Of a stretch of DNA of 32,000 nt, positions 1-26,770 are shown one piece after another (positions within the stretch are counted from its first letter, which is position 1; every line of letters starts with the position of its first letter). The DNA comes from Candidatus Saccharimonadota bacterium (GTDB taxonomy: Bacteria > Patescibacteriota > Gracilibacteria > UBA4473): positions 540,001 to 572,000 of the forward strand of contig OY781871.1 of assembly GCA_963677105.1 (NCBI GenBank), given 5' to 3'. The notes beneath the pieces were generated by a model, which saw only the letters and a list, made by a program, of their open reading frames with translations, was not told the origin of the DNA and did no database searches. Made by a program: the position numbers and the translations under genes.

Positions 1-4
1 CACG

Positions 5-33
5 GAAAAACAAAAGACCAGCCTCGCCAGTCT
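5..33 (-). terminator. putative rho-independent terminator of the TrpR/YerC-like gene
   Basis: Minus-strand RNA folds as AGACUGG-cgagg-CUGGUCU (7 bp including two G.U pairs, so it pairs only in the minus-strand transcript). It is followed by UUUGUUUUU and lies about 25 nt after the stop at 60-62. Confidence 0.4.
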
Positions 34-59
34 GTATTGATTGCAATTTTTTTGTTTAA

Positions 60-383
60 TTACGCATCAAAACACGCTGGCGAAACTGTGCCAGAATGAT
101 GATGTTGTGAATTGAGACGATTTAAAACAAGTTTGTATCCTTTATACTTTCCCTTCAGGAAACTCGAAATGCGAGCAATTGTTGTCGAACTCATTTTTGT
201 TTTTTCTTCGATCTTTTTATAAGAGATTTTTTTATCAAGCATTTGAACAACTTCCCAACGCCGAGAGAAATCATTTATTTCGTCCATGGTCAGTAAATCC
301 CGTAAAAATGCACTCATCTCTTGCTCGCTTTCAAGAGAAAGGAAAGCAGTTATGAGATTGCGCACGGAAGAATTGATTTTCAT
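60..383 (-). CDS. TrpR-related YerC/YecD-family helix-turn-helix protein (107 aa from ATG 383)
   Basis: LSLESEQEMSAFLRDLLTMDEINDFSRRWEVVQMLDKKISYKKIEEKTKMSSTTIARISSFLKGKYKGYKLVLNRL matches the YerC/YecD TrpR-like family layout. The ORF-track start at 503 would run through the hisS promoter and start. ATG 383 lies 10 nt below a TTGACA-17-TAAAGT promoter. Confidence 0.75.
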   Translation of the reverse strand: MKINSSVRNLITAFLSLESEQEMSAFLRDLLTMDEINDFSRRWEVVQMLDKKISYKKIEEKTKMSSTTIARISSFLKGKYKGYKLVLNRLNSQHHHSGTVSPACFDA

Positions 384-393
384 TTGCACGAGC

Positions 394-422
394 ACTTTAT
401 TTAAGTAAAGTATTTTTGTCAA
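394..422 (-). promoter_or_regulatory. sigma70-type promoter of the TrpR-like gene
   Basis: Minus strand: TTGACA (422-417), 17 nt spacer, TAAAGT (399-394), then 10 nt to ATG 383. Confidence 0.45.
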
Positions 423-450
423 ATTTTTTTTAAGACGAGGCTCTCCTTTT

Positions 451-479
451 TTGAATACCAACCATAACTCTGCTAACAT
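451..479 (+). promoter_or_regulatory. sigma70-type promoter of hisS-rhomboid
   Basis: TTGAAT (451-456), 17 nt spacer, TAACAT (474-479), then 7 nt to ATG 487. The TTG at 451 is what the ORF track used as a start codon. Confidence 0.4.
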
Positions 480-486
480 TCTCTCG

Positions 487-1893
487 ATGGCAAAACTAAA
501 CACATCGACTCCAAGTGGATTTCCAGAATTTTCTCCTGCTGAGCAGCGTGTTATTCAACAGTGGAAACGAACAATTGCAGAAATATTCGAGAAAAACGGA
601 TTTCCAATGCTCGAGACACCGCTTGTAGAACGTGCGGAAAATTTCGAAGCGAAGGGCGGAAATGCGAAGGAAATTTATATTTTAGATCGATTACGAAGAG
701 AGGAAGCGGCGGATCAAGACAAAGATGTTCGCGCGATTCGTTTTGATCATACAGTTCCATTAGCGTTATACGTTGCACGTCATTTCAACGAATTAGCTTT
801 TCCGTTTCGACGGTCAGTAATCGGTCCGGTTATGCGTGGAGAAAGGGCGCAAAAAGGACGTTTTCGACAATTTGATCAATGTGATATTGATGTGGTTGGA
901 AGTGAAAAATTAAGTCTCGCCAATGATGCACAGATGGTTGCAATAATTTCTCAGATTTTTGAGAGATTAATGCCGGATCAAGGATTTATAATAAGTATTA
1001 GTAATATAAAAATATTAAAAGGCCTTTTTGGGCATTATGGTTTTTCTGATAGACAAATTATTGAATTAAAAAAAGTTCTTGATGATTATGAAAAAGTGTC
1101 ATATAAAGAATTTTCAAAACGTGTTCATGAAACAGGAGTGTCAGAAGAGTTTTTTGATTACTTTATGAAATTCATGGAAGATATAACAAAGATTGAGAGT
1201 AACGACGAAATAATAAAAAGACTAAAAGAGGAGGCAGAAAAGAAAGAAATAACAAATAGTTCTTTTTTAGAGGGGGTTAAAGAGTTAGAAAAAGTGTGGG
1301 GAATAATAAAAATAATGATAGACGTAAAGCTTAAAGACCCCGTATATTTAGATGAAATTGAAGAAAATGGGGAGAGGAGGAAAATATTTGTACGTGAAAA
1401 ATGTAAGTTTAATTTATGGATAGTTCGTGGACTCGACTACTATACTGGAACAGTTTATGAAACGAATCTTTTAAATGAAGACGGAACAATAAATAAATCA
1501 TTGGGTTCAGTTTGTTCTGGAGGAAGATATGACGATTTGGCGTCTCTTTTTACTGGGAAAATATTACCAGGAGTGGGAATTTCTATTGGACTTACTCGCC
1601 TACTTTGGCAACTGTTTGATGCAAAATTAGTTGATGTTGACCGAGTGAATAATTCAGAAGTGATCATTCTTTCTCGAAACACAGAGTTGATAAAAGAATC
1701 GATAAAACTCGGCTCAGTATTGCAAGAACAGGGAATCGCTGCGGAAGTGTATATGGAAGAAAAGAAAATTCAGAAGCAGTTTGATTATACAAAAAAGATG
1801 GGGATTCCATGTTGCGTAATTGTTGGAGAGGAAGATACGATTGTGGAATGTGATGATCTTGAGCTCAAAGCTCAGGTTGAGAATCTGATTTAA
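487..1893 (+). CDS. hisS: histidine--tRNA ligase (class II), 468 aa from ATG 487
   Basis: HisRS blocks are present: FPMLETPLVERAENF, IRFDHTVPLALYVARH, motif 2 GPVMRGERAQKGRFRQFDQCDIDVVG, RGLDYYTGTVYE and GGRYDDL. A C-terminal anticodon-binding domain is also present (EVIILSR...MGIPCCVIVGEED). The insertion domain between motifs 2 and 3 is K/E-rich and looks longer than in E. coli HisRS. Confidence 0.9.
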   Translation: MAKLNTSTPSGFPEFSPAEQRVIQQWKRTIAEIFEKNGFPMLETPLVERAENFEAKGGNAKEIYILDRLRREEAADQDKDVRAIRFDHTVPLALYVARHFNELAFPFRRSVIGPVMRGERAQKGRFRQFDQCDIDVVGSEKLSLANDAQMVAIISQIFERLMPDQGFIISISNIKILKGLFGHYGFSDRQIIELKKVLDDYEKVSYKEFSKRVHETGVSEEFFDYFMKFMEDITKIESNDEIIKRLKEEAEKKEITNSSFLEGVKELEKVWGIIKIMIDVKLKDPVYLDEIEENGERRKIFVREKCKFNLWIVRGLDYYTGTVYETNLLNEDGTINKSLGSVCSGGRYDDLASLFTGKILPGVGISIGLTRLLWQLFDAKLVDVDRVNNSEVIILSRNTELIKESIKLGSVLQEQGIAAEVYMEEKKIQKQFDYTKKMGIPCCVIVGEEDTIVECDDLELKAQVENLI

Positions 1894-2424
1894 ATGCGAG
1901 ACTTTCCGCCGATAACGAAAGCGTTGCTTATTATAAATGTGATTATTTTCATCGCGAATCAGTTTGGAGCACTTCCATACACAGTTTCATTTCCAGGAAT
2001 TTATTCCATAGGAACTCTTTTGGCGCACTTTTCTCATGCATCATTGTTTCATTTGGGATCTAATATTATAGGGATTATCATTGTTTCTCCGATGCTTGAG
2101 CAAGACCTAAGAAAGAAGAAATATATTTTGCTTTTGCTCTTTTTGTGGCTTTCACAAGCGGCAGCTATTCCATTTTTAATAAATGCTCCGACATTAGGAT
2201 TCTCGGGGATTTTACTGGGATTGCTGACTTTTTTTGCAATACGGCTTTGGGTTCAAACGCGAAATATGTCGAATTTCACACTTGGAAGAGATTTATTATT
2301 TCTTGTAGGAATTAATGTTGCGCTGCCATTATTCGTTCCACAAATATCATTTATTGGACACGCGCTAGGAGCGTTACTAGGATTGATTGCTGCAACAGCG
2401 TCTCTCATTCCTTGCAGGAAATAA
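1894..2424 (+). CDS. rhomboid-family intramembrane serine protease (176 aa)
   Basis: Polytopic hydrophobic protein with HASLFHLGSN (H..xxH..N), the GFSGILLGL catalytic GxSG motif and the IGHALGALLGL catalytic His helix. Its ATG directly abuts the hisS stop (TAAATG at 1891-1896). Confidence 0.8.
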   Translation: MRDFPPITKALLIINVIIFIANQFGALPYTVSFPGIYSIGTLLAHFSHASLFHLGSNIIGIIIVSPMLEQDLRKKKYILLLLFLWLSQAAAIPFLINAPTLGFSGILLGLLTFFAIRLWVQTRNMSNFTLGRDLLFLVGINVALPLFVPQISFIGHALGALLGLIAATASLIPCRK

Positions 2425-2461
2425 TTTTGTGATTTCGGGAGTCATATATTACAGTTCGTCC

Positions 2462-3214
2462 ATGTTACCAATTTTAATTTCATTGCCACATTGCTCAGAT
2501 CATATTCCATATGATATTCGAGACTCTGTCGCGCTTTCTGATCTTGACTTAAAAAATCATTGTGATCTGTATACTTCGTGGATTTTTGACATTCCTGAAA
2601 CGTTTCAAGTAAAAGCGAGTTTTTCACGGCTCGTTTGTGATCCAAATCGTTCGGTAGATGATATTAAATTTCGCGACCAAAATGATTATGCGGAGTTCAT
2701 TTCCGACAGTATTCCGCTTCATTCTATCGACAAAAAACCAATTTATAAAAATGTTCTTACCGAGGAAGAAGTAGCACGACGAGTGAGAAAATATCATGCG
2801 TTGTATCACTGGCAGCTAGAAATGTATTTACCAATGGTGAAGTTTTTTATTGACGGACACTCTATGTACAATATTGCGCCAGATATTTATCGTAATGCTG
2901 GACAACAGCGACCAGATATTTGTCTTGGGACGCGTGATGGAACGACTTGTAAACCAGAACATGCAGAGTTTTTCAAAACATTTTTTGAAGCATGTGGATA
3001 TCACACAACTATTGATTCTCCTTTCAAGGGAAAATACATTATGGAGCGTTATTGCTCTTCAAATAGAGTTCCGGGGATTCAAGTAGAGTTTAATCAACGA
3101 TTCTACATTGACCCCGAAACACTCGAGCCAAAGTACGATAAAATTGAAGAACTAAATAAACAGATGACAAATTTAACGTTTGCTTTCTGTCAGAAATTTT
3201 TTCCAGAAGAGTGA
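2462..3214 (+). CDS. N-formylglutamate amidohydrolase (FGase, HutG-like) family protein, paralog 1 (250 aa from ATG 2462)
   Basis: Blocks align from memory to Pseudomonas HutG: LPILISLPH, FSRLVCDPNR, KYHALYH, FFIDGHSM, RPDICLGTRDGTTC, DSPFKGKYIMERY, PGIQVEFNQ. The ORF-track start at 2387 overlaps the rhomboid gene. Confidence 0.8.
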   Translation: MLPILISLPHCSDHIPYDIRDSVALSDLDLKNHCDLYTSWIFDIPETFQVKASFSRLVCDPNRSVDDIKFRDQNDYAEFISDSIPLHSIDKKPIYKNVLTEEEVARRVRKYHALYHWQLEMYLPMVKFFIDGHSMYNIAPDIYRNAGQQRPDICLGTRDGTTCKPEHAEFFKTFFEACGYHTTIDSPFKGKYIMERYCSSNRVPGIQVEFNQRFYIDPETLEPKYDKIEELNKQMTNLTFAFCQKFFPEE

Positions 3215-3925
3215 GATTGCGCGTTCTATTTTTTGAGAGACAGCGGTAAGTTGTTCGCCATTTATATTTTCAGCATTCGTAGAAAAAAGTCCGCGTCGAA
3301 CTTCGATTTGAACACCAGGAAGTGTTTTTTTGGAACAAAAATGTGTGAGTAAATGTCCGCCAAGAAAAGGATCATCTATTTGGACAGAAAACCCAAGAGA
3401 CTGAAATATTTCAGAAAACAAGAAGGCAGTTTTTTTATTGCACGTTCGAAAATTATTCGTGGAAAGGACAATGTCTGGTCGTTTACTTTTTGGATCAACT
3501 TCTTCATCCAGCGAAAGGTCTTCCATCGTATGTCCAGCGATAAAAAATTGAATATTTTCGTTTTTAATTATTTGCAAGCACCTTGCATAAAATTCTTTGT
3601 GCTCTTTTTCTCGAGATATTTTTTCAGAATCAGTTAGCGGAGTCATATATATTTCTTTGCCGTATTCTGTTTTTTGGCGAACAATTCCAGCTCGCTTAAA
3701 ATTTTTAGAAAGAGTCCAATCGTTACTTGCTCGATTCAAATCACAAAATAATCGAGAATATTTTGCTGACAAGATGTGAAATTTATCATGCGTGAAAATT
3801 TCTTTACTTCCATAATCCCAATAATACTTTTGTATTTGCTCAGTAGAAAGAGTTAATTGTTCTCGTGTAGCGATTGGCAGACAAGTTTCTCCATGAGGAA
3901 GGGCAATTAAAATGGGAAGCTTCAT
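3173..3925 (-). CDS. N-formylglutamate amidohydrolase (FGase) family protein, paralog 2 (250 aa)
   Basis: Same family blocks: LPILIALPHG, YSRLFCDLNR, FFIAGHTM, RPDIVLSTNNFRTC, DDPFLGGHLLTHF, PGVQIEVRR. Its start overlaps the ATP-grasp stop (ATGA at 3922-3925). Its 3' end overlaps paralog 1 by 42 nt. Confidence 0.8.
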   Translation of the reverse strand: MKLPILIALPHGETCLPIATREQLTLSTEQIQKYYWDYGSKEIFTHDKFHILSAKYSRLFCDLNRASNDWTLSKNFKRAGIVRQKTEYGKEIYMTPLTDSEKISREKEHKEFYARCLQIIKNENIQFFIAGHTMEDLSLDEEVDPKSKRPDIVLSTNNFRTCNKKTAFLFSEIFQSLGFSVQIDDPFLGGHLLTHFCSKKTLPGVQIEVRRGLFSTNAENINGEQLTAVSQKIERAISLFWKKFLTESKR

Positions 3926-5187
3926 TCTTGAAGTCTTATTGAATTACGGATTTCATGCAAAAGTTTTGTCGCATTGTTGAGTGTTTGTTGAAATTCTTTT
4001 CCATACACAAGAAACTTCATAATGAATTTTCCTCCACGAGAAGCTGGTCCGACCATTTCTCCGTTTTTTCGGTTAAGAGTTATATTTTTAATATCATCGC
4101 GATTTTTCAAACATGAAAAATCAATGGAATCGAGTTTCCCTATATTTGGTGAAAATATTTCGACTACCGCCGTATAAACAGGATATTTTTCTGGCAGAGA
4201 AATAGTATCTCCGAGTGCGACCTGAATACATATTTCATTGAGATCGAAGTTTCTTTGAGTTGCGACATCGAACATTTCTCCACGAAATCCTCCTGAACGT
4301 GCTGCGACTTCTACAACAGAACATTCATTTGTTTCTCGCTTAAAAAACACCTCAGTATGACTTCCACAAAAATTCGTTCCTAGCGCATCGAGCGCTTTTT
4401 TCACGGTATTATAAATAATAGATTCCTGTTCAGGAGTGTAGTCGGCAGGCAGAATTCTGATTGGTAAATGATGATCAGAAATTCCTATTTCTTCGGAAGT
4501 TACATATCTACAAATCGGAGTAAAATGATGTTTCCCGTTTACTGTCAGTGCATCGATTGATAATTCTTCTCCAACTAAAAGTTCTTCTAAAAGAAAATGA
4601 GTACGTGGATCAGGAGTAGTAGGAATTTTTTCATGATTAAATAATTGATCATGAAGAGTCGCCATTTCGTTTTGAATTTCTTCTTGAAAGACTCGCAATG
4701 TTTGAGCGAGATCTTCTCGTGATTTCACTTTTGCGACAAACCGGGAATGAACTCCAGAAAGTTGTTTTAAGATCAATGGAAATTTGTGACAGGTCAAAAA
4801 TTCTTCTGCCTTTTCCATACTATCAATTAAAACAAAATCAGCAGCTGGGACTTTCTGTTCCGCAAAAACTTGTTTCATCAAGAACTTATTTCGAAAGTTT
4901 ACAGATTTTTCAAGGGAAATTCCGGGAAGTTTTTTTGCTTCAGCAATTGCTGCCGTGGGAACAATGAAGTCTTCAAAACGTGTTAGGACGGCATCAAATT
5001 CAGACTTCGCTAAAACAGAACGCACCTCTTCCCAATCGAAAATATCATTTACTTTCCATATTTTTGAAAATGAATTTTCATATTCCAACTTAAATTCTCC
5101 TTTATTTATTAATAAAAAGTTTTCGTTATTTTTTGATAAATGTGTTGATTTACCGCGATATCCTACAAATAAAATTCTTTTTTTCAT
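3922..5187 (-). CDS. ATP-grasp domain carboxylate-amine/L-amino-acid-ligase-like enzyme (421 aa from ATG 5187)
   Basis: ATP-grasp layout: NKFLMKQVFAEQKVP, FPLILKQLSGVHSRFVAKVKSREDL, FLLEELLVGEELSIDAL, GSHTEVFF...CSVVEVAARSGG. The ORF-track start at 5205 is a TTG. ATG 5187 (MKKRILFVG) lies 8 nt below an extended -10. Confidence 0.75.
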   Translation of the reverse strand: MKKRILFVGYRGKSTHLSKNNENFLLINKGEFKLEYENSFSKIWKVNDIFDWEEVRSVLAKSEFDAVLTRFEDFIVPTAAIAEAKKLPGISLEKSVNFRNKFLMKQVFAEQKVPAADFVLIDSMEKAEEFLTCHKFPLILKQLSGVHSRFVAKVKSREDLAQTLRVFQEEIQNEMATLHDQLFNHEKIPTTPDPRTHFLLEELLVGEELSIDALTVNGKHHFTPICRYVTSEEIGISDHHLPIRILPADYTPEQESIIYNTVKKALDALGTNFCGSHTEVFFKRETNECSVVEVAARSGGFRGEMFDVATQRNFDLNEICIQVALGDTISLPEKYPVYTAVVEIFSPNIGKLDSIDFSCLKNRDDIKNITLNRKNGEMVGPASRGGKFIMKFLVYGKEFQQTLNNATKLLHEIRNSIRLQE

Positions 5188-5195
5188 CACGCAGT

Positions 5196-5204
5196 ATCTT
5201 AGCA
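5196..5204 (-). promoter_or_regulatory. extended -10 element of the ATP-grasp/FGase operon
   Basis: Minus strand TGcTAAGAT (5204-5196), 8 nt upstream of ATG 5187. No convincing -35. Confidence 0.3.
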
Positions 5205-5373
5205 AAAATAATGAAGAAGTGGGAGTGATTTTTCGTTTTCCAGTGTCACTTGACGGAAATTATTTTTTATTATAAAAAGGGCTTGTATTTTCGTTTATAG
5301 ATTTTAGATAAAATACTTATAACGAATACTCTTTGATAGAACGAGTTAATTTAAGAAAAATAAGGAGGCTGGA

Positions 5374-5652
5374 ATGAAAGCCATTTTAGCGATATTGGTG
5401 ATTGCTGCTTTTTGTTGGTTTGTACTTCAACCACTTGCTGAATCCACGAGATTTAGTAACGAATTAAACGAACTCAACTCTTGTCAGGAATTACTTGATT
5501 GGGCGAAGGAACGACACGATTTTACTGATCCACAAAAGAAAGAGGTCGCGCAAAGATTTTCTGAAATTGTTGAAAAGACGGGGAAAGAGATTGATTTTTT
5601 AAAATTTAAAGAATCGTTTGGTGATATGGGAATAAGGATCAAATTAAAATAA
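5374..5652 (+). CDS. hypothetical small membrane-anchored/secreted protein (92 aa)
   Basis: This is the only gene in the window with a canonical Shine-Dalgarno: AAGGAGG at 5362-5368, 5 nt before the ATG. It has an N-terminal hydrophobic helix (MKAILAILVIAAFCWFVLQPL) and a terminator downstream. I recognise no family. Confidence 0.6.
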   Translation: MKAILAILVIAAFCWFVLQPLAESTRFSNELNELNSCQELLDWAKERHDFTDPQKKEVAQRFSEIVEKTGKEIDFLKFKESFGDMGIRIKLK

Positions 5653-5678
5653 CCAACTCGTAATATCATACCTTTTGG

Positions 5679-5702
5679 GCGGGACGAAAGTTCCGCTTTT
5701 TT
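5679..5702 (+). terminator. rho-independent terminator after the 92-aa ORF
   Basis: GCGGGA-cgaaag-UUCCGC (6 bp including one G.U pair) followed by a T6 run. Confidence 0.5.
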
Positions 5703-5752
5703 AATATTAAAATTTTGGACTTGAGATTTCCTGAAAACTAAGTACAACGTGC

Positions 5753-5781
5753 TTGTTATTTTGCGCTATATATGGTACAAT
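5753..5781 (+). promoter_or_regulatory. sigma70-type promoter (extended -10) of the MFP-RND operon
   Basis: TTGTTA (5753-5758), 17 nt spacer, TGgTACAAT (-10 at 5776-5781). The predicted leader to ATG 5810 is about 22 nt and has no SD. Confidence 0.45.
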
Positions 5782-5809
5782 TTACAGAATTTTAAAAATT
5801 TTTCAAAAC

Positions 5810-7456
5810 ATGAAATCACTCATCCAACGAATCAATTGGAAAAAGGTATCCATAATTGTCTGCGCAATTATGTTATTGCTCGTCTTAAATCGAGTCTTTA
5901 ATAAACCAGCAGTGAAAGAAACAACAATTTCCGATTCACAAGCAAAACAAGTTTCAATAATCGAATTCGGTCGTTGGTCATCTGACGAACAACGAGAAAT
6001 TACGGGAACAATTCTCTCTGGAACAGATGTGGATGTACGAGCGGAAGTACCAGGAATAATCGAGAAAACATTCGTAAAAATTGGTGACATGGTTGAAGAG
6101 GGGCAAGTTTTGGCTTCTTTTCAACGGAAAAATGATGCGACACAAATTTCATATGAAAATCTGCTTCAGCAATTAGCAGTTGCAAAAATTCAAGCATCAT
6201 CTTCGGTTCAATCTGCAGAGATTGCTTTAAATTCCGCTCAACGTCAATTAGAACAAACAGCGAAAAGCGAAGCTCAAAATTATTCTCGCACATTCGATTT
6301 ACTAAAAACACAGGCTCGAAATGCTGAAAGTGAATTCGTGAATATCCTAGATTGGGCAGATACGCGACTTATGGTTTCTCATTCTGCGCGAGCAAATGCG
6401 GATTACAATGCACAACAAATTGGGAAAAATAATACGATCATGCGACAGAACTTGAAAAATGATTTGGAAGAATTATTGCGAGAACAAAAACGAATTCACC
6501 AAGAAAACCTTCCCGAGGTTATGACAGACGATGAAGTCTTGTTTTTGGCGACAGATCGATTGCAGCTTTTGAAAAAAATACGAACTTTTACTCGATCATT
6601 TAATCTGCTAGTACAAGGAACGCCAGTAACAGGATCTTTTTCTCAGGCAAACAAGACGGCTTATGAAAATGAAGCAACAAGTTTCGTAGCATCTATTGAT
6701 GCAAAGGTTCTTTCTCTTGAGACCCAGATTGAAGCTGCAAAATCAGAACAAGGACGGAATCGCCTTTCTGTTTTAGGCGCAGAAAATTCAGTACAAAACT
6801 TAGAAGCAGGACTTGCTGTGGCGAGAGCGCAAGCAGGATCACAGATCACACAATTGGAAACACAAATTCGTTTGGCACGTAGTAATCAAGAAGATCTTAT
6901 TGTTCGCGCTCCGTTTACGGGGACAGTTGTAGGGAAAACGGTTCTTCCTTTTGATCAGGTGAGAGCAGGAGACATTTTATTTTCTCTTGTTGGGGAAAAA
7001 GTTGCGCCAAAGATAATTGCGACTATTACTCGGAACGAATTAATGCGAATACAAACTTCTCCAGGGAAAGTAGAAGCAGTATTCAAAGACGGGAAAACAG
7101 TACCACTTACAGAGGTTCGTATTAGTGGGAAATTAAACGCCATTACACAGAAATTAGAGGTAGAATTTCCAATTGAAGAACTTCCAAAAGAAACTCTTGT
7201 AGGAGAATTTGTACGAATTCGAGTTCCGCTCAACGGAAAACACAACAACTTACTTCCTATTTCTGCGGTATCTTTTGAACCAGACGGACCAGAAATTCTT
7301 ATATTGGAAAAGGGAGAAGGAAAGAGACAAAAAATTGAGGCGGGAGAAATTATATCAAATGCGATAGAGATTCTTTCGGATCTTCCCGAAGGTTTGCAGG
7401 TGATACGATATCGGAATCGAGCACACGCAGGAGAAAAATTAGAAATTCGTAAATAA
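5810..7456 (+). CDS. efflux RND-type periplasmic adaptor / membrane fusion protein (HlyD family), 548 aa from ATG 5810
   Basis: N-terminal TM anchor (KKVSIIVCAIMLLLVL). Lipoyl-like half-motifs VDVRAEVPGIIEKTFVKIGDMVEEGQVLASF and LIVRAPFTGTVVGKTV flank a coiled-coil of about 250 aa, followed by a C-terminal beta-barrel region. The stop overlaps the RND start (TAATG at 7454-7458). Confidence 0.85.
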   Translation: MKSLIQRINWKKVSIIVCAIMLLLVLNRVFNKPAVKETTISDSQAKQVSIIEFGRWSSDEQREITGTILSGTDVDVRAEVPGIIEKTFVKIGDMVEEGQVLASFQRKNDATQISYENLLQQLAVAKIQASSSVQSAEIALNSAQRQLEQTAKSEAQNYSRTFDLLKTQARNAESEFVNILDWADTRLMVSHSARANADYNAQQIGKNNTIMRQNLKNDLEELLREQKRIHQENLPEVMTDDEVLFLATDRLQLLKKIRTFTRSFNLLVQGTPVTGSFSQANKTAYENEATSFVASIDAKVLSLETQIEAAKSEQGRNRLSVLGAENSVQNLEAGLAVARAQAGSQITQLETQIRLARSNQEDLIVRAPFTGTVVGKTVLPFDQVRAGDILFSLVGEKVAPKIIATITRNELMRIQTSPGKVEAVFKDGKTVPLTEVRISGKLNAITQKLEVEFPIEELPKETLVGEFVRIRVPLNGKHNNLLPISAVSFEPDGPEILILEKGEGKRQKIEAGEIISNAIEILSDLPEGLQVIRYRNRAHAGEKLEIRK

Positions 7457-10400
7457 TGAGAAAAAGTCTTTCCGGATTCTGGACATTTTTTATCACGCGT
7501 TTTCGTGTGACGTTGTTAGCGATAATTTTCATATTAACAGCCGGACTGTATTCATATAAAACGATTGCGCGCGAGACAGAACCCAAAGTAGACATTCCAA
7601 TGGCGACAATTATGACCATTTGGCCAGGAGCCTCGTCGGCAGATGTGGAAAAACTCATAACGAATAAGCTCGAAACAGAAATAAAAAGCCTTGATCATAT
7701 AAAAAAATACACATCATCTTCTCTTTCGGGAGTATCACTTATTACAGTGGAATTCGATGTTGAGAGTGATAAGCAAGTTAATCTTCAAAAATTACGAGAC
7801 AAAATTGACGACGCTACTCCAAAACTTCCTGGAACATTACCAGACGACCCTAGTGTTTCAGAAATTTCTTTGTCGGATGTAGCAGTTGTAAATATATCGT
7901 TGTCGGGAGATTTTTCGTGGTCAGAACTTAAGCGATTTGCTGAGACCTTGGAAGATGAATTTGCTGGAATGAATAACGTGAAAGACGTGAATTTACTGGG
8001 AGTTCCAGAAGATGAAGTTCATATTTCTTTGGATCCAGGAAAATTAGAAGCCTTAAATTTAAGTGTAAATGAAGTTCTACAAGCCGTTCGTGCTGGACAC
8101 GTAGATATGCCATTAGGAGTGATGGAAATAGATGGACAATCCGTTGAAGTAACGGCGCGAGCGGAATATGAAAACACGAAAGAAATCGCATCCGTTCCCA
8201 TTACAGTAAAAAATGGAGCGACTATTACGCTCGGAGACATTGGGGAAGTGCGTCAAGAGTTTGAGTCATTTGATGTAGAGACGTATTTTCAAGATGAAAA
8301 GGGTATTTCTCCTTCTGTATCGATTGAGGTAACAAAATCAGCCGAATCAGGAAACGTTCTGATTATGGTGGAAAATATCTTAAATCGAATGGAAGAACTG
8401 AAGACACAAGAAGCAATTCCTCGTTCATTAAACACAACTGTAACGTATAATCGAGCAGACGAAGTTCGCGAGAGCTTAGACACTCTTATCAAAAGTGGGA
8501 GTCAAACGGTTCTTTTGATTATGCTCATTATGTTTATTTTTGTTGGATGGAAGGAAGCGCTTCTTGCTTCGATTGTTATTCCTTTATCGATGTTGTCAGC
8601 GGTCGTATCAATGCAAATAAGTGGAGGAACATTCAACGGGATATCTTTATTTGCCCTTGTGTTGGGACTCGGGCTTCTTGTTGATAATGCGATTGTTATT
8701 GTTGAGAGCATGTCTGAGGCAATAAACAAAAGACACATGACTCCAGAGGAAGCAGCAGAACACACTTTAAAAGTTTTTCGTTGGCCACTTATCACAGGGA
8801 CGGCAACAACAGTCTGTGCTTTTTTACCAATGATTTTCTTCATTTCGGGAATTATGGGAGATTATATTGCCGTTATTCCAAATACAGTAAACGCTATTTT
8901 GTTATCGGCATTATTTATTGCGTTGTGGTTATTGCCATCTGTGGGAGTTCGATTCTTTAAAATGTTTCCTCCGAAAAAAAACAGAGAAAGAAAAGGGCTT
9001 CAGTTCGTTCAGTCATGGTATGTCAGCATCATGAAAAAAGTTTTATCAAAAAAAAGACACATTTTTGGAACACTTGGATGTTCCTTTCTTGCGTTAGTCT
9101 TTTCATTAACATTAGTAATAACGAAACAGGTACCAGTGGAAGTATTTCCTTCATCTGATATGCCGTTTTTTACCGCAGATTTTGAATTCCCCACGGGAAC
9201 AGATCTCAGTGAAACACGTCAATTGATTAAGCCAATATCCGAGCAATTACGTCCGTTTTTGGGAACACAAAAAGATGGAGATGTTTGGATCGACAGCTTC
9301 GTTTTTACAGCAGGAAAATCACAGTCTTGGGATCATCATGGAGGATCTGGTTTATCAGAAAGTAATGTTCTTGGATTGTCTGTTTATTTAACGAATAAAA
9401 ATAAGAGAGAAATTCGTTCATATGATGTTTTCCCAAAGATTAAAGAGGCGGTACTTCCTGTTATCCCAGAATATGTAGAAGACACTTTTTCGGAGCTACA
9501 AGCAGGACCACCGACAGGAGAAGCAGCGATTTCGGTGCGTTTAACTGGACCAGATTATTCACGGTTAGAAGAACTTGGTCGTGATCTACAGAAAGAGTTA
9601 AAAAAGTTAGAGGGACCTTTAAACGTTCGAGACGACAGTGCTGAGAAAGTATTTCAGCTTACGTGGACATTTGATCGCGATGTATTGGCTCGATTTGGAC
9701 TTGCCCCAGCAACAATAATGGAAACATTACGAACAGCAGTAAACGGAACAACTGTTGTAAAAATCACAGAAGGAGATGAAGAGATAGATGTTGTAACGCG
9801 AATAAATTGGGAAGGAAATAGAGACTGGGACAATCCAAGCTCTCTTGATGTACTAAATCAAATTTCAGTAAAAACACCCCAAGGGAATTTCATTTCTCTG
9901 GAGCAAGTGGCTCATCCAAAATTATCATCAGAAGTTTCATTGTTGCGTCATCGAGACGGATTGCGAACATTGACAGTTTTAGCAGACATGAAGGATGGAA
10001 TGCCGGTTTCTGTTATTCAATCAGATATAAACAAGGCAATAAAAAAACTAAATCGATTGCCAGGAGAAATGATAGAAATGGGAGGAGATAGCGAAGAGGG
10101 AGATCGTTTGATGGGAGAAATGGGAGTTGCAATGGGAATTGCAGTTTTGCTAATCCTTGTTGTTCTTGTGACGCAATTTAACTCATTTTGGCAAGCCTTT
10201 ACGACGCTGGCCATGGTTCCACTTTCTCTCACAGGAGTGTTTGTTGGGTTTTGGCTTCATGGTCTTACTATCTCATTTCCAACGATGATTGGGATCGTTT
10301 CTTTGGCGGGGATTATTGTAAATGATGCAATTGTTTTGATTGATCACATAAACCAAAACATCGGAGAACATAATTTACAATGGAAAGAAGCATTTATCGA

Positions 10401-10641
10401 AGCAGGAAGAAGTCGATTACAACCGATTTTTCTTACATCAATTACAACTGTCGTTGGGTTGTTACCGCTTTCTCTTTCTGATGAAATGTGGGCAGGACTT
10501 GGATTTGCGATTATTTATGGGATGTCTCTTTCAACAATTCTTACGTTACTGTTGGTTCCGTGTTTTCTTGGAGCAGGACACATTATGGGAGAATGGTTTA
10601 AAAAATGTTGGAAGCAGTTTATGTGTTGGATGATGTGCTAG
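7456..10641 (+). CDS. RND superfamily efflux permease (AcrB/AcrD/AcrF-like), 1061 aa
   Basis: 12-TM/2-large-loop architecture. Conserved TM4 and TM10 blocks: GLGLLVDNAIVIVES and LAGIIVNDAIVLIDHI. Length is typical for the family. Confidence 0.9.
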   Translation: MRKSLSGFWTFFITRFRVTLLAIIFILTAGLYSYKTIARETEPKVDIPMATIMTIWPGASSADVEKLITNKLETEIKSLDHIKKYTSSSLSGVSLITVEFDVESDKQVNLQKLRDKIDDATPKLPGTLPDDPSVSEISLSDVAVVNISLSGDFSWSELKRFAETLEDEFAGMNNVKDVNLLGVPEDEVHISLDPGKLEALNLSVNEVLQAVRAGHVDMPLGVMEIDGQSVEVTARAEYENTKEIASVPITVKNGATITLGDIGEVRQEFESFDVETYFQDEKGISPSVSIEVTKSAESGNVLIMVENILNRMEELKTQEAIPRSLNTTVTYNRADEVRESLDTLIKSGSQTVLLIMLIMFIFVGWKEALLASIVIPLSMLSAVVSMQISGGTFNGISLFALVLGLGLLVDNAIVIVESMSEAINKRHMTPEEAAEHTLKVFRWPLITGTATTVCAFLPMIFFISGIMGDYIAVIPNTVNAILLSALFIALWLLPSVGVRFFKMFPPKKNRERKGLQFVQSWYVSIMKKVLSKKRHIFGTLGCSFLALVFSLTLVITKQVPVEVFPSSDMPFFTADFEFPTGTDLSETRQLIKPISEQLRPFLGTQKDGDVWIDSFVFTAGKSQSWDHHGGSGLSESNVLGLSVYLTNKNKREIRSYDVFPKIKEAVLPVIPEYVEDTFSELQAGPPTGEAAISVRLTGPDYSRLEELGRDLQKELKKLEGPLNVRDDSAEKVFQLTWTFDRDVLARFGLAPATIMETLRTAVNGTTVVKITEGDEEIDVVTRINWEGNRDWDNPSSLDVLNQISVKTPQGNFISLEQVAHPKLSSEVSLLRHRDGLRTLTVLADMKDGMPVSVIQSDINKAIKKLNRLPGEMIEMGGDSEEGDRLMGEMGVAMGIAVLLILVVLVTQFNSFWQAFTTLAMVPLSLTGVFVGFWLHGLTISFPTMIGIVSLAGIIVNDAIVLIDHINQNIGEHNLQWKEAFIEAGRSRLQPIFLTSITTVVGLLPLSLSDEMWAGLGFAIIYGMSLSTILTLLLVPCFLGAGHIMGEWFKKCWKQFMCWMMC

Positions 10642-10786
10642 GAAAATTCTTGATTTTCAAAAAAAAGAGACGATAATTCCACTGTCTTATTTATTAACCA
10701 CTAAAGTTACGAATATATTCTTGGGCATCGTTTAGAATTTTTATTCAGTTTAGTAAAAATTCATTTTATTTTTTTATTTTTTAAAA

Positions 10787-10918
10787 ATGTATAGCTCTTG
10801 TGATTGCGGTTGTGACTGCAAAAAATGTAAAGAATGTAAAAAGCCTTATTGTGAATGTGACTGTGAAACGGAGACTACTCCGTTGGTAGGAGAAGAAGAA
10901 CGAGACTTTGAATGGTGA
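10787..10918 (+). CDS. untracked 43-codon ORF: cysteine-rich (9 Cys) metallothionein-like peptide
   Basis: My own translation is MYSSCDCGCDCKKCKECKKPYCECDCETETTPLVGEEERDFEW followed by TGA. A strong terminator starts 13 nt after the stop. There is no SD, but that is the norm in this window. Confidence 0.5.
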   Translation: MYSSCDCGCDCKKCKECKKPYCECDCETETTPLVGEEERDFEW

Positions 10919-10930
10919 TTTAGAAAAAAA

Positions 10931-10955
10931 GCCTTCGTGAAGACGAAGGCTTTTT
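10931..10955. terminator. strong rho-independent (potentially bidirectional) terminator
   Basis: GCCTTCGT-gaag-ACGAAGGC, a perfect 8-bp GC-rich stem, flanked by an A7 run upstream and a T5 run downstream. Confidence 0.7.
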
Positions 10956-10999
10956 AATAAAATCTTTTTAAAGATACTTTATATGATTTTTTCGTATAC

Positions 11000-11036
11000 A
11001 AAAATATTTTCAAACAAAACAAGTTGAAAATATTTT
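11000..11036 (-). terminator. AT-rich hairpin immediately 3' of tRNA-Thr (possible terminator)
   Basis: Inverted repeat AAAAATATTTTCAA (11000-11013) / TTGAAAATATTTT (11024-11036). On the minus strand it follows the tRNA 3' end by 2 nt and is followed by U-rich sequence. Confidence 0.35.
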
Positions 11037-11038
11037 AG

Positions 11039-11114
11039 TGGAGCCGCCTTCGAGAATCGAACTCGAGATCTCGTCCTTACCAAGGACGCGCTCTAGCCAC
11101 TGAGCCAAGGCGGC
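11039..11114 (-). tRNA. tRNA-Thr (anticodon GGU), 76 nt, CCA encoded
   Basis: The reverse complement GCCGCCTTGGCTCAGTGGCTAGAGCGCGTCCTTGGTAAGGACGAGATCTCGAGTTCGATTCTCGAAGGCGGCTCCA folds as a cloverleaf. Acceptor GCCGCCT/AGGCGGC, D stem GCTC/GAGC, anticodon stem CGTCC/GGACG with loop TTGGTAA, T arm TCGAG-TTCGATT-CTCGA. Confidence 0.9.
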
Positions 11115-11126
11115 GCAACGAGCAGA

Positions 11127-11154
11127 ATTGTACTAAGCATGGTTGAAATAGCAA
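11127..11154 (-). promoter_or_regulatory. sigma70-type promoter of tRNA-Thr
   Basis: Minus strand: TTGCTA (11154-11149), 16 nt spacer, TACAAT (11132-11127), 12 nt before the mature tRNA 5' end. Confidence 0.4.
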
Positions 11155-11197
11155 TACCGAAGTGGAAATTTTTAAAAAAATGAGTACGATTTGCTCG

Positions 11198-12190
11198 ATG
11201 AAACGAAAAATACTCGTTACTGGAGGAGCCGGGTTTATTGGTTCAAACTTTGTCCATCATGTATTGGAAAATACTGATTGGGAAATTGTGAATCTTGATT
11301 TGCTCACATATGCTGGAAATCTAGAGAATTTAAAATCCATAGAAGAAAATCTGAAGTACACTTTTGTAAAAGGAGATATTGCAGATGCAAAATTCATTGA
11401 TGAATTATTTGAAAAAGAAAAATTTGATGGAGTAATTAACTTTGCGGCAGAAACACACGTTGACCGTTCAATAGAAGATTCTTCGCCATTTATTCGAACA
11501 AATATTTTGGGAACACATGTTTTGCTAGAAGCTTGTAGAAAGCATGAAGTTGCTCGATATCACCAAGTTTCGACAGATGAAGTGTATGGTGATTTAGGTG
11601 ATCCATTGCCAGGAGAAGCATTAAAGTTTTTCACAGAAAACACGCCACTTGCGCCAAATTGTCCGTATGCAGCAGCGAAAACTTCAGCAGATTTATTGGT
11701 TCGATCTTGGCATCACACCTATGGTTTACATGCGACGATTTCACGATGTTCAAATAATTATGGACCATATCAATTTCCAGAAAAACTAATTCCATTTTTC
11801 CTCTTCAAAGCAATGAAGAACGACACATTGCCAATGTATGGAGATGGAAAAAATATTCGTGATTGGTTGTATGTGCGTGATCATTGTGAGGCGATTCGAC
11901 TCATTTTCGAAGAATCAAAACCAGGAGAAGTTTGGAATATTGGAGGACACAATGAAAAAACAAACTTAGAAATTACGGACATGATTTTGCAGGAGACAGG
12001 ATCGACGTCAGAAATGAAATTTGTTCCCGACAGAAAAGCGCACGATCGTCGATATGCAATTGATGCGAGTAAAATTGAACGAGAACTTGGATGGATCCCG
12101 GCTCATACTTTCGAAGAAGCGCTTCCTCTGACAATTAAATGGTATCAAGAAAATAAAGAGTGGGTGGAGAGTTGTCGAGAAAAAGTCTAA
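11198..12190 (+). CDS. rfbB: dTDP-glucose 4,6-dehydratase (330 aa from ATG 11198)
   Basis: Extended SDR with ILVTGGAGFIGSNF, the catalytic STDEVYG and the YAAAKTSADLL (YxxxK) motif. End-to-end RmlB-like sequence (NYGPYQFPEKLIP, GDGKNIRDWLYVRDH, HDRRYAID). A TACGAT -10-like box lies 7 nt upstream of the ATG. Confidence 0.9.
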   Translation: MKRKILVTGGAGFIGSNFVHHVLENTDWEIVNLDLLTYAGNLENLKSIEENLKYTFVKGDIADAKFIDELFEKEKFDGVINFAAETHVDRSIEDSSPFIRTNILGTHVLLEACRKHEVARYHQVSTDEVYGDLGDPLPGEALKFFTENTPLAPNCPYAAAKTSADLLVRSWHHTYGLHATISRCSNNYGPYQFPEKLIPFFLFKAMKNDTLPMYGDGKNIRDWLYVRDHCEAIRLIFEESKPGEVWNIGGHNEKTNLEITDMILQETGSTSEMKFVPDRKAHDRRYAIDASKIERELGWIPAHTFEEALPLTIKWYQENKEWVESCREKV

Positions 12191-14398: not shown

Positions 14399-17300
14399 TT
14401 AAAGACTCGTTAACTCCTTTTGTAATGTATCTAATTTGGTCTCAGCATCAGTGAGTTGTTGTTTCGTTTGGTTCACTAAATGCTCAGGAGCTTTATCGAT
14501 ATATGACTTATTAGTTAAACGTCCCTTCAGTCCACTAATTGATTTCTCGAGAGAAGCGATTTCAGCTTCTAAGCGTTTCTTTTCTGCCGTTGCATCAAAA
14601 GGAACTTCCACGAAAATCTCCATTCCGTTGATCAGTACCATTGCTGAACGTTCCGGCTTGGACGCCTTTTCTGTAATTTCAACATCGGACAGATTCGCCA
14701 ACACCTTCATCACCTCAACTGTTTTGTCCAAAGAATCCGCATTCTTACCTGCTGAAATTTTAACTGAAATCTTATCCTTCGGATTCAATTTCTTCTCCGC
14801 TCGAACCTTTCGGATTTCTGTCACAATTTCTTGCATGAGTGTAAAAATTCTTTTTGATTCAGTGTCTTTAAATTTTAAATCGGGGAAATTTTGTTCGATT
14901 AAAAATGAATTTTTTGGGTTTAATTCACTCCATAAGTTTTCTGTAATAAATGGAACAAGTGGATGTGCTAATTTTAGAATTTCCAGAAATACGCTATATA
15001 AAAATTTTGGATTTCTATCTATCTTTTGAGTCTCCAAAAACCAACTACAAAATTCATCCCACACGAAATGATAGATCTCATCTCCAGCGGAAGAAATTTC
15101 ATATTTTTCTAGTTTTTGCGAAACACTTGTAGAAACTTCGGAAAATCTATGTAGAAGCCATTTTTCTGAAAGAGAAGTAGGATTCTTTAATATTTTTTCA
15201 ACATCAAATTCAGAATCAACGTCTTCCAATTGCATTTGTACAAATCTTCCGGCATTCCACATTTTATTTACAAAGTTTCGGTATCCAGACACTTTCGCTT
15301 TTCCAAGTGGAATTGGATTTCCAGGAGTTGCTCCGATTACAAGAGAAAGACGAACAGCGTCCGCTCCCACTTCTTCAATTATTTCGAGCGGATCAATTCC
15401 ATTTCCTTTCGATTTCGACATTTTTTGTCCATTTTCATCACACACCAATCCATGCAAATACACCGTATGAAATGGATATTTTCCTGTTGCATATCGTCCG
15501 AACATAATCATTCGAGCCACCCAAAAGAAGATAATATCATGTCCCGTTTCGAGCACATCTGTTGGATAAAATTTCTCAAAATCAGGCGTTTTGTCAGGCC
15601 AACCAAGCGTTGAAAATGGCCACAATGCAGAGCTAAACCATGTATCGAGAGTATCTTTGTCTTGTTGTAAACCTTCTCCAACAGGATCAGCTAAAACCGT
15701 TAATGCACGAATTTCCCCCTTTTCCCATTTCCACTCAGAACGGAATCGCACAAATTTTTCTTCATCTTCACTTCGGCTAAAATGAAACAAGGCAGCGGTG
15801 AAATTTTTGTGTCCAATCACGAGAACATCGTCTTCTTTTTTTAATCGTTCAATTACGTTTTGAGCTCGCCGAGAAATATCAATTAAGTCCTCGTCTTCTG
15901 TTTTATCAAATTGAATTTCAAAAGGGCCTTCGCGATGCAAATTTGCTTTTCCAGCTAACTCTGAACTCGTGAATTCTGCCAACTCTGGCCACACCTCTAC
16001 AGGAACATTTAATTCGGCAGCAACGATTTCAGCGGTTTGATGTCCGCGTTTTAAATTAGAACAAATTATTTTCTTAATCCCTTTCTTTCGAATATTTTCA
16101 GCTATTTTGCGAGCATCTTGCAAACCATTATCCGTAAGAGGATAATCTCCCCCAAGAATTTTTTTTGCGTTCGCTTCACTTTCCCCGTGTCGAGCAAAGA
16201 GAATATTTTTTTCCACGGGCAGATGAATATTTTCATTTTTATCGTACCAAACGGGGATTCTGTGTCCCCACCAAATTTGTCGTGAAATACACCAATCTCT
16301 TAGATTATCAATCCATTGAAAATAGACCTTTTCAAAGCGCTGCGGAATAATTTTTATATGATTTTCACGAACCGCTTCTTGCATCTGTTTTTTGAGCGTT
16401 GTTTTTTTTCCTGTAAATTCGTCGATGAATTCTTTTTCCACAGAAATAAACCACTGAGGAGAAAGCATTGGTTCTACGATTGTTCCAGAACGATAGCATT
16501 TTGGAACACGATTTGGATGTGGTCGTTTTTCAAACAATAATCCCTTTTCTTCCAACAATTCTCCAGCTCGTTTTCGGGCTTCTTGAACAGGCATTCCGGC
16601 ACACGGTCCTGCAATATCGGTCATCGTTCCAGCAAAATCAATTTTCTGGATAAGTGGTAAATCTCGACGTTGTGCTAATTCAAAATCATCTGGAGAATGA
16701 GAAGCGGAAATAGTCATTGCTCCTGTTCCAAACGCTGGATCAATAATTTCATCAGCAATTACCCAAAATTTTCGCGGTCCCGCATATGTTTCTGCTGTGA
16801 ATTCTTGTCCGACAAGAGCTTCTCCAGGAACAACTTCTTGGATATTAAAATCTTTTCGTAATTCTGTGTGTGCGTCGTAGTATTTTTTTGTTACAATACA
16901 CTCTTTTCCTGTTGCATTTATAGCGCGTACATATTCAGCAGTTGGATGTACTACTACAGGAGAATCTGCACATTTTGTTTCAGTTCGAACAGTTCCAATT
17001 AAAAATGGACCACACCAAAACTCATAAAAATCTGCTATATTGTCGTCCCATTCTACTTCGTCATCAGCAAGTACAGATTGTGCGCCAACGGACCAATTTA
17101 TCATTCGATGACCACGAACAATAAGTCCGTCTTCATAGAGTTTTTTAAATACCCAATTTACCGCAAAGTTTCTTTCAGAATCAAATGTATAGGCTTCTCG
17201 AGACCAATCGAGATGTGCGCCCATTTTTTTTATTTGATGAGTAATTCGATCATGTTTTTCTCCTGCAAATTTTCTACATTCAGATAAAAAATCTTCTCGA

Positions 17301-17608: not shown

Positions 17609-17634
17609 TTCAGCGTGGTACACAAATCACGCAA

Positions 17635-26741: not shown

Positions 26742-26770
26742 ATTCACGGAAAATTGTACGTATTTTTAGG

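Follow-up and report, generated by a model that had tools for sequence, protein, structure and literature searches.

Why would an enzyme that builds amide bonds be encoded in such close company with enzymes that break them? The question is raised by three adjacent genes in a stretch of DNA from a Candidatus Saccharimonadota bacterium (contig OY781871.1, positions 540,001 to 572,000 of the forward strand), the whole 32,000 nucleotides of which are referred to here as the window. One of the genes encodes an ATP-grasp carboxylate-amine ligase, and the other two encode members of the N-formylglutamate amidohydrolase (FGase) family, designated FGaseA and FGaseB. ATP-grasp ligases link a carboxylate to an amino acid through an amide bond, by way of an acyl phosphate, and enzymes of the FGase, MATCAP, M20, and M19 families hydrolyze amides beside a residue with a free carboxylate. 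Comparison with related loci shows that the ligase and its hydrolase constitute a real, putatively make-and-break unit, conserved across relatives and distinct from histidine breakdown. What the unit makes and breaks is quite possibly a short, probably glutamate-type peptide, for which the locus would serve as a synthetase/exopeptidase couple.

The three genes overlap one another (Table 1). On the minus strand, the sequence CAA GAA TGA AGC places the TGA stop of the ligase gene and the ATG start of the FGaseB gene within a shared ATGA, and the FGaseA gene converges on the pair from the opposite strand. A first-pass annotation, made from the letters of the stretch, had delimited the same three open reading frames (ORFs), pointed out both the ATGA junction and the convergent overlap, and named the ATP-grasp and FGase families. 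All of this is confirmed here, the families by matches to PF13535 for the ligase (E=1.1e-13) and to PF05013 for FGaseA (E=1.6e-42, 146.6 bits) and FGaseB (E=2.9e-28, 100 bits). The ATG at 5187 is favored over an upstream TTG at 5205 as the start of the ligase, because homologs begin at the same MKK... sequence. The window uses the standard genetic code, with TGA as the stop of 6 of its 19 genes and long ORFs intact, observations that rule out the alternative code (UGA read as glycine) of some Gracilibacteria. A promoter and terminator scan of positions 1800-5800 returned no signals exceeding shuffle expectation, and Rfam gave no match within positions 1-12000.

The evidence that carries the main finding comes from the neighborhoods of related ligases. 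Ligase-family loci (given below as L or, for proteins, P numbers) were drawn from species-representative genomes, metagenomes, and an exact-protein look-up, and their partners were mapped by tblastn and ORF clustering. Either FGaseB or MATCAP lies immediately adjacent to the ligase in at least 23 distinct loci of Peregrinibacteria/Gracilibacteria-type genomes and Dependentiae. The window arrangement, in which the ligase is followed by FGaseB and FGaseA converges on the pair, recurs in L098 and L099, where the ligase is ~67-70% identical to that of the window and the 4-nt ligase/FGaseB overlap is kept; the convergent overlap of FGaseA and FGaseB is 36 bp in L098. A 1.7-kb contig of the window lineage (L060), which ends after FGaseB, likewise has the ATGA stop/start junction, and the ligase is also followed by FGaseB in L017 and L065. 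Since the same trio with its overlaps is found in L098 and L099, and ligase-hydrolase adjacency is family-wide, the trio is not a chance neighborhood.

In other relatives, the ligase and FGaseB are a single polypeptide. One in-frame fusion of 668-670 residues, in which the N-terminus of the FGase is lost, occurs in L001/L061 and L062/L063 (proteins P0009 and P0008). A second, of 680 residues, occurs in L009 and is joined differently: at its junction (...K-E-M-T-K-K-L-P-I-L) the FGase start codon is read through and Met-Thr-Lys-Lys-Leu-Pro is kept. A gene for an M19 dipeptidase converges on the end of the L009 fusion.

MATCAP (PF08014/TIGR02421) adjoins the ligase in at least 15 related loci and is a commoner partner than FGase among relatives. 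For example, at least six distinct Peribacteria loci have the order MATCAP, ligase, and an M20 peptidase that is PepT-like (TIGR01883, 182 bits). In L016, L114, and L115, a four-gene operon runs from a MurD-like ligase through the ATP-grasp ligase and MATCAP to an A-type FGase; in L115, the stop-to-start gap between the MurD-like gene and the ATP-grasp ligase is 4 nt, and MurL lies upstream. A Mur ligase and DivIC are likewise found upstream of the fusion in L001. In at least six loci of Dependentiae (TM6), the ligase converges on a MATCAP gene that is the last of a 7TM_transglut, ATPgrasp_ST, MATCAP series. Convergent overlaps comparable to that of FGaseA and FGaseB are observed between the ligase and MATCAP in Dependentiae and between the ligase-FGase fusion and M19 in L009. 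The MATCAP partners match both PF08014 and TIGR02421 and have intact HExxxH and EEG(L/V)A motifs, with H172, E173, H177, E204, G205, and A207 invariant. By tblastn, there is no MATCAP match anywhere in the window, where FGaseB stands in its place.

The ligase is thus accompanied by one hydrolase slot, adjacent or fused, that is filled by FGaseB or MATCAP, and by an optional second slot filled by FGaseA, M20, or M19. Zinc exopeptidase-type hydrolases are the sole genes that persist beside the ligase across unrelated contexts, and no conserved gene for a small substrate, precursor, or target was found by the ligase across the neighborhoods compared. Partner types are interleaved across the ligases in an identity matrix and in a neighbor-joining tree for which no branch support was computed, which suggests repeated replacement of one hydrolase by another.

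A few of these loci have features of their own. In candidate division TM6 GW2011_GWF2_28_16 (L019) and its equivalents L020-L024, the operon of the RimK-like ATPgrasp_ST overlaps the gene of the L-amino-acid-ligase-like enzyme convergently, such that one MATCAP is flanked by two different ATP-grasp ligases. In L013, the ~1 kb downstream of the ligase, which is the position of the hydrolase in relatives, has stops in all six frames and neither an Rfam match nor a remnant of FGase or MATCAP. L103 and L104, members of a basal sub-clade whose ligases are 31% identical to that of the window, have a small RimK-like ATP-grasp gene upstream and truB and mnmA downstream; the two ligases of each locus stand in tandem, and the hydrolase is absent.

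Table 1. Positions of the module genes and of other features discussed in the text (window numbering unless a related locus is named).
Feature	Position	Strand	Remarks
FGaseA gene	2462-3214	+	250 aa; PF05013 match; second-hydrolase slot
FGaseB gene	3173-3925	-	250 aa; PF05013 match; divergent zinc amidohydrolase
ATP-grasp carboxylate-amine ligase gene	3922-5187	-	421 aa; PF13535 match; fold like that of L-amino-acid ligases
Ligase stop/FGaseB start overlap (ATGA)	3922-3925	-	Read from sequence; translational coupling
FGaseA/FGaseB 3' end overlap	3173-3214		Convergent, 42 bp; from ORF coordinates and sequence
Intergenic region upstream of ligase	5188-5373		Presumed promoter region, from position only; divergent 92-aa non-conserved ORF opposite
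TrpR/YerC-like gene (PF01371)	60-503	-	Overlaps hisS start
ValRS gene	14399-17623	-	1074 aa
Phosphatase insert of ValRS	~15764-16216		Residues 474-618
VirD4/TraG-like DUF87 ATPase gene	24228-26747	-
DUF87 ATPase gene, fusion-carrying genome	L001:14861-17485
Region downstream of ligase	L013:11260-12315		No hydrolase
RimK-like ATPgrasp_ST operon, TM6	L019:11241-14537		Equivalents in L020-L024
Small RimK-like ATP-grasp, basal sub-clade	L103:2-358; L104:424-720		Upstream of ligase
FGase-MATCAP fusion, Vibrio sp. HDW18	L105:4113-6104		663 aa; plasmid NZ_CP049914.1
Rhizobial triad	L106:3451-7213		Equivalents in L108-L112
TrpR/YerC-like genes (PF01371), relatives	L114:10587-10874; L116:10287-10532
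FGase gene of folate cluster	L117:4965-5729		Enterococcus faecium plasmid NZ_CP034948.1

What kind of ligase is this? An AlphaFold2 model built on 18 family members (predicted local distance difference test, pLDDT, 92.4; predicted template modeling score, pTM, 0.91) has the multi-domain ATP-grasp fold of the L-amino-acid ligases (LALs). Its best structural matches by Foldseek (template modeling, TM, scores of 0.67-0.82 overall) are the LALs BL00235 (3VOT, TM 0.80/0.82), BacD/YwfE (0.80), and RizA (0.72), together with the structural-genomics entry 4DIM, all of which outrank biotin carboxylases and PurD. A sequence profile of the ligase retrieved the same set from PDB sequences (E 1e-26 to 1e-16), and CxTHTE and R-x-G-G motifs are common to the ligase and LALs. 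The ATP-grasp catalytic residues K101, K141, E201, H277/E279, E293, and R297-x-G-G are invariant in the ligase family. No NCBIfam model matches the ligase at or above its cut-off, and even the LAL equivalogs score below theirs (BacD, 50.7 vs 850; DdaF, 28.6 vs 840). Several named identities were rejected on the same kind of score, namely PurT, PurK (15.4 vs a cut-off of 318), PurD (29.1 vs 288), Ddl (22-24 vs 245-310), LysX (24.3 vs 276), CphA (14.4 vs 850), and RimK (TIGR00768 rimK_fam, 31.7 vs 143.4, with the ATP-binding segment alone aligning).

The window ligase belongs to a small family of its own, whose modeled fold is nearest to that of the LALs. An exhaustive hidden Markov model (HMM) search of 1.84 billion cluster representatives gave a core family of ~25 clusters at 50% identity (E<1e-60), past which an unbroken tail of generic LAL-like proteins followed (189 at E<=1e-30). 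Hosts of the family are Peregrinibacteria/Gracilibacteria-type genomes and Dependentiae, and the closest named relatives are Gracilibacteria and Peregrinibacteria, which points to a window host of the candidate phyla radiation type. More distant homologs, 24-30% identical, occur in Actinobacteria, Bacillus, Enterococcus, and Providencia within unrelated capsule or secondary-metabolite clusters, contexts that were judged uninformative for the core family.

Both FGases cover profile positions 2-218/219 of PF05013, for which the gathering cut-off is 28.9 bits. In an alignment of 15 relatives, all family-invariant residues are present in both proteins (in FGaseA numbering: H10, D35, R56, D60, N62, R63, H133, R150, D152, P187, G190, Q207, and E209). 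The two are 30% identical across 236 residues (E=3e-33) and, judging from their sequences, belong to old, separate subfamilies, each with its own orthologs. FGaseA lies nearer to canonical FGases: it aligns with 2Q7S, a solved N-formylglutamate amidohydrolase (E=2.7e-14), and scores 75.3 bits against the HutG model vs 33.5 for FGaseB, neither of which reaches the cut-off of the HutG equivalog TIGR02017 (278.75). FGaseB, for which a sequence search of the PDB gave no match, is 39-41% identical to the ligase-fused FGase domains of L001 and L009, to which it is orthologous. Its AlphaFold2 model (pLDDT 92.1) has 2Q7S (TM 0.80) and 2ODF as top structures, and the next neighbors after the FGases are Amidase_3 cell-wall amidases, a phage poly-gamma-glutamate hydrolase, and M42/M20-type peptidases. 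The breadth of FGaseB was estimated from the loci, since a word-indexed protein search gave only 6 relatives.

Of the three genes, that of FGaseA is the most loosely attached. Its membership in the module is argued for by the A-type FGase genes that stand last in the operons of L016, L114, and L115, by its conservation, which is the highest of the set in both comparable lineages, and by the other dipeptidase-type enzymes that take the same position elsewhere. Among close relatives of the window, FGaseA is 81-84% identical, the ligase 67-70%, and FGaseB 56-58%. In the lineage with the MurD-like operon, the A-type FGase is 77-85% identical vs 61-75%, 55-70%, and 51-66% for the other genes.

The first-pass annotation had likewise described the ligase as LAL-like rather than PurK- or Ddl-like, had seen the conserved FGase blocks in both paralogs, and had taken their distance as the mark of an old duplication; each of these points holds. 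It had also proposed that the ligase-FGase linkage be sought in relatives, where two differently joined fusions bear it out, and had allowed that the ligase might instead prove to be a housekeeping enzyme in passing company or the FGases ordinary HutG copies. In fact, the ligase lies outside the housekeeping clades, its linkage is conserved, and hut genes are missing from the window and related loci alike. The interpretation of the first-pass annotation therefore stands in part, as to the families, the LAL-like fold, the absence of hut genes, and the conserved linkage; MATCAP, the M20 and M19 partners, a proteobacterial triad, and the looser attachment of FGaseA were not anticipated.

That triad extends the theme beyond these bacteria. 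A tblastn search of plasmid and chromid records with the MATCAP partner matched 106 replicons, chiefly of Sinorhizobium/Ensifer. In six Rhizobiaceae-type replicons, an FGase gene (270 aa) is followed by a QEGLA/MATCAP gene (631 aa) and a GshB paralog; these are from Shinella, an unverified 'Roseateles' record, Sinorhizobium sp. RAC02, S. fredii pNGR234b, S. medicae pSymB, and R. gallicum. The rhizobial FGase is detected by the A-type FGase profile (E=4e-14) and missed by the B-type profile. The rhizobial ligase scores 480 bits against NF009110 and falls under the cut-offs of the true GshB equivalogs. Because this triad has a GshB-like ligase, the combination of ATP-grasp, MATCAP, and FGase recurs with different ATP-grasp clades. 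A related arrangement is found on a plasmid of Vibrio sp. HDW18, in which FGase (residues 42-223) and MATCAP (324-644) are fused in one protein; there is no ATP-grasp gene within 5 kb of this fusion. The NCBI name for the QEGLA protein, 'flavohemoglobin expression-modulating QEGLA motif protein', conveys phenotype only. As to the rhizobial proteins themselves, they are 54-93% identical across genera, and an N-terminal stretch of ~250 residues in the QEGLA protein has no Pfam match.

How might the parts work together? According to the favored reading, the ATP-grasp enzyme would activate a carboxylate as an acyl phosphate and couple to it the amino group of an amino acid, yielding a product with a new C-terminal residue that bears a free alpha-carboxylate. 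FGaseB, or MATCAP in most other relatives, would hydrolyze that type of bond and free the terminal residue, and FGaseA, or an M20 PepT-like or M19 enzyme elsewhere, would split the remaining N-acyl-amino acid or dipeptide. Jointly, the three enzymes may control how much of a small peptide is present or how long it is; it would probably be a di- or tripeptide of glutamate type and may come from a cell-wall stem peptide. We infer the chemistry, the order of steps, the small-molecule target, and the glutamate specificity from the enzyme families concerned. Translational coupling, the two fusions, and the exchange of FGaseB for MATCAP speak for one molecule as the target of both ligase and hydrolase. 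A short peptide is favored over a protein because the window ligase resembles LALs and that of the rhizobial triad resembles GshB, because small compounds are the substrates of three of the four hydrolase families, and because no target gene is conserved nearby. The stepwise action of two hydrolases would also fit the FGase-MATCAP fusion and the presence of two hydrolase slots. A lead toward glutamate is given by the MurD-like neighbors of L016, L114, and L115, the RimK-like neighbors in Dependentiae, the deglutamylase activity of MATCAP/TMCP enzymes (PMC10499314), and an FGase gene in a folate cluster of Enterococcus. Enzymes of the FGase family have been annotated as N-formyl-Glu and gamma-Glu-Gly amidohydrolases (PMC9397018).

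The folate cluster merits description in its own right. On the Enterococcus faecium plasmid, the FGase gene comes late in the order: S component of an energy-coupling factor (ECF) folate transporter, folB, folE, a gene labeled 'cyanophycin synthetase', folP, NUDIX, FGase, and GNAT. The 'cyanophycin synthetase' gene possibly encodes a FolC-type ligase, and the context hints that some FGases are amidases of N-acyl-glutamates such as p-aminobenzoyl-Glu or folate.

Several observations weigh against the favored reading, either in part or as a whole. FGaseA runs in the same direction as the hisS-rhomboid genes and merely converges on the ligase-FGaseB pair, and A-type FGases without any ligase occur in other genomes of the group (L100, L101). 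L013 and L116 have neither a hydrolase neighbor of the ligase nor a degraded FGase or MATCAP there, and the basal ligase sub-clade (L018, P0020, P0075) sits with TruB/MnmA instead, preceded in one case by a small RimK-like ATP-grasp. The linkage to MurD is limited to one ligase sub-clade and is absent from the window. The proposed substrate is read from enzyme families, and a glutamate-type residue is suggested by analogy. The only characterized MATCAP-family enzymes, the MATCAP/TMCP carboxypeptidases and deglutamylases, work on the tails of a protein, tubulin (PMC10499314). Finally, ATP would be burned in a futile cycle if a ligase and a hydrolase acted on the same bond without regulation, and no regulator is evident.

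The tubulin enzymes lead directly to a first alternative, reversible tagging of a protein C-terminus, in which the ATP-grasp enzyme would extend a housekeeping protein, encoded elsewhere, by one or more residues and FGaseB or MATCAP would remove them, much as RimK and RimB act on ribosomal protein S6, or TTL and MATCAP on tubulin. We consider this unlikely. MATCAP/QEGLA proteins with intact motifs do lie beside the ligase in most loci, MATCAP is found downstream of the RimK-like ATPgrasp_ST in Dependentiae, and glutamates added by RimK are removed by RimB, with which it forms natural hybrids. In addition, the attachment and reversal of peptide tags have been predicted for prokaryotic operons of ATP-grasp and peptidase genes (PMC3495828). 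However, the window ligase is LAL-like and not RimK/TTL-like, the remaining partners (FGase, M20 PepT-like, and M19) are of small-substrate families, and no candidate target gene is conserved in any neighborhood compared. A bolder version would make the ligase and its MATCAP or FGaseB a prokaryotic system for reversible C-terminal residue tagging of a protein, or of a cell-wall stem peptide at its free alpha-carboxylate. Such a system would be an evolutionary antecedent of the eukaryotic TTL/MATCAP cycle of tyrosination and detyrosination, and FGase-fold 'de-tagging' carboxypeptidases, a class not recognized before, would be able to take the place of MATCAP; the probability of this version is low as well.

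A role in cell-wall stem-peptide remodeling or recycling is also doubtful. Here, the ligase would supply a dipeptide or extra residue for peptidoglycan precursors, and the hydrolases would act on competing or released muropeptides and not on the ligase's own product. The composition of ligase, carboxypeptidase-like, and dipeptidase-like (M19, M20, and FGase) enzymes fits such a role, and sets of this kind recall VanA/VanX/VanY or MpaA/PepD recycling. The co-directional MurD-like ligase directly upstream in L016, L114, and L115, the MurL and 4-nt gap of L115, the Mur ligase and DivIC upstream in L001, and the Amidase_3 cell-wall amidases that follow FGases among the structural neighbors of FGaseB point the same way. 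Nevertheless, the Mur linkage is that of a single sub-clade to which the window does not belong, Mur neighbors are absent from the rhizobial and Vibrio versions, the ligase is not Ddl-like, and in-frame ligase-FGase fusions point to one shared molecule.

Less probable still is a salvage relay, in which N-blocked amino acids or peptides would be imported, the hydrolases would liberate from them an amino acid in short supply, and the ligase, fed rather than opposed by the hydrolases, would fix it at once in another compound. The host genomes are small, with contigs of 0.96 and 1.2 Mb that look almost complete, and are assigned by name to candidate phyla radiation or TM6 lineages, organisms of a type that are amino-acid auxotrophs. 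Fusion would favor the channeling that such a relay calls for, the lone A-type FGases in other genomes of the group are consistent with it, and the FGase-MATCAP combination of Vibrio and Pseudoalteromonas, which has no ligase close by, suggests a purely degradative unit. Yet the neighborhoods compared share neither a conserved transporter gene nor one for a downstream pathway, and the relay leaves unexplained why carboxypeptidase-type partners specifically stay beside the ligase.

The idea that these are ordinary HutG copies for histidine catabolism beside an unrelated ATP-grasp gene is effectively refuted. In its favor are the FGase-family matches of the two proteins and the alignment of FGaseA with a solved N-formylglutamate amidohydrolase, but both scores fall far short of the HutG equivalog cut-off, HutH, HutU, and HutI domains are absent from the large ORFs of the 32-kb window, hutH, hutU, and hutI are absent from related loci, and the ligase linkage is conserved, fusions included.

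The coupling of an ATP-grasp ligase to a hydrolase is a known kind of system, and the pairing of prokaryotic ATP-grasp ligases with peptidases that reverse their tags has been published as an idea, as a passage in PMC3495828 (citing Iyer et al. 2009) indicates. In the literature searched, to which the 2009 amidoligase survey did not belong, nothing was found on this ligase family, its FGase fusion, the FGase/MATCAP interchange, the Rhizobiaceae triad, or the Vibrio fusion. Neither did that literature yield a pairing of ATP-grasp with formylglutamate amidohydrolase or with KIAA0895, DUF1704, or TIGR02421. The locus thus offers a genomic handle on a ligase family without a characterized member, on a non-Hut branch of the FGases, and on prokaryotic MATCAP/QEGLA proteins, whose only studied relatives are tubulin detyrosinases. 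Partner swapping and fusions predict a common target for all these hydrolases, either one short peptide or the residue at its C-terminus. For the search for this substrate, a genetically tractable carrier is offered by the rhizobial triad, the organisms of the ligase family being known here from metagenome assemblies alone. If the cell-wall lead is true, the module would bear on the building or recycling of peptidoglycan in small-genome bacteria.

Elsewhere in the window are hisS, a rhomboid gene, genes for HlyD/AcrB-type exporters and a MscS channel, radA, valS, trxB, pgi, purQ, and clpB. An anti-phage defense system was considered and dismissed, as PADLOC gave no family match for the four proteins tested. 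The ValRS carries within its class-I catalytic core a PGAM-like histidine-phosphatase domain (PF00300, E=8.9e-26) with intact 'FARHGESEAN' (RHGES motif) and a later 'VIGHKNF', an insertion that is unusual for an aminoacyl-tRNA synthetase. Genes for TrpR/YerC-like helix-turn-helix proteins (PF01371) lie 2-5 kb from the module in the window, L114, and L116, in contexts that otherwise differ; such genes may be numerous in these genomes and their proximity a matter of chance. A VirD4/TraG-like DUF87 ATPase (839-874 aa) is encoded <20 kb from the module in the window and again in L001, an unrelated genome that carries the fusion, and ORF clustering places the two in one homology cluster.

How does the module compare with known systems? 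LALs such as BL00235 (3VOT), BacD/YwfE (3VMM), and RizA (4WD3) resemble the window ligase in ATP-grasp architecture (TM 0.72-0.82, profile E 1e-16 to 1e-20). They differ from it in sequence, at 16-20% identity, the ligase family having invariants of its own such as R302/E304 after the GG loop, and in context, the family being linked to hydrolases and not to antibiotic-biosynthesis genes. HutG shares with the two FGases its Pfam family, fold, and catalytic residues, and is set apart by their sub-cut-off scores and lack of a hut context. In the gamma-glutamylation pathways of ethanolamine utilization and SCO1615, an ATP-dependent ligase installs an amide that a PF05013 enzyme removes in the final step (PMC9397018), as proposed for the module; that ligase, however, is glutamine-synthetase-like and works with intervening oxidoreductases, and no such enzymes are linked to the module.

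MATCAP provides two further comparisons. In the tubulin cycle, TTL, an ATP-grasp enzyme, adds a C-terminal residue and a MATCAP-family enzyme (MATCAP/TMCP) removes one (PMC10499314), but the substrate is a eukaryotic protein and TTL is not LAL-like, so that the likeness is one of analogy and implies no cytoskeletal target. The QEGLA/MATCAP operons of Proteobacteria and Dependentiae combine ATP-grasp and MATCAP, with or without FGase, as do relatives of the window; their ligases are of GshB/RimK type, and the window itself has no MATCAP gene.

The nearest parallels to a ligase paired or joined with its own antagonist are two. RimK and RimB, a ligase and the remover of its product, are co-transcribed and occur as a natural RimB-RimK hybrid (PMC11957791); they resemble the module in the pairing and in the fusions, although neither family is represented in the window. 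Trypanothione synthetase-amidase combines in a single polypeptide an amidase with an ATP-grasp C:N ligase, the two acting on the same amide (PMC2427367), and together with glutathionylspermidine synthetase-amidase it recalls the ligase-FGase fusions of the window's relatives (P0008, P0009, and L009), whereas the window genes are unfused and meet at their ATGA. The GspS/TryS amidase is an N-terminal, papain-like CHAP cysteine hydrolase, in contrast to the C-terminal zinc enzyme of FGase fold in the fusions, and the ligase clades differ as well. The likeness is therefore one of functional analogy and not of membership, and the opposing activities ascribed to the module are predictions from its enzyme families.

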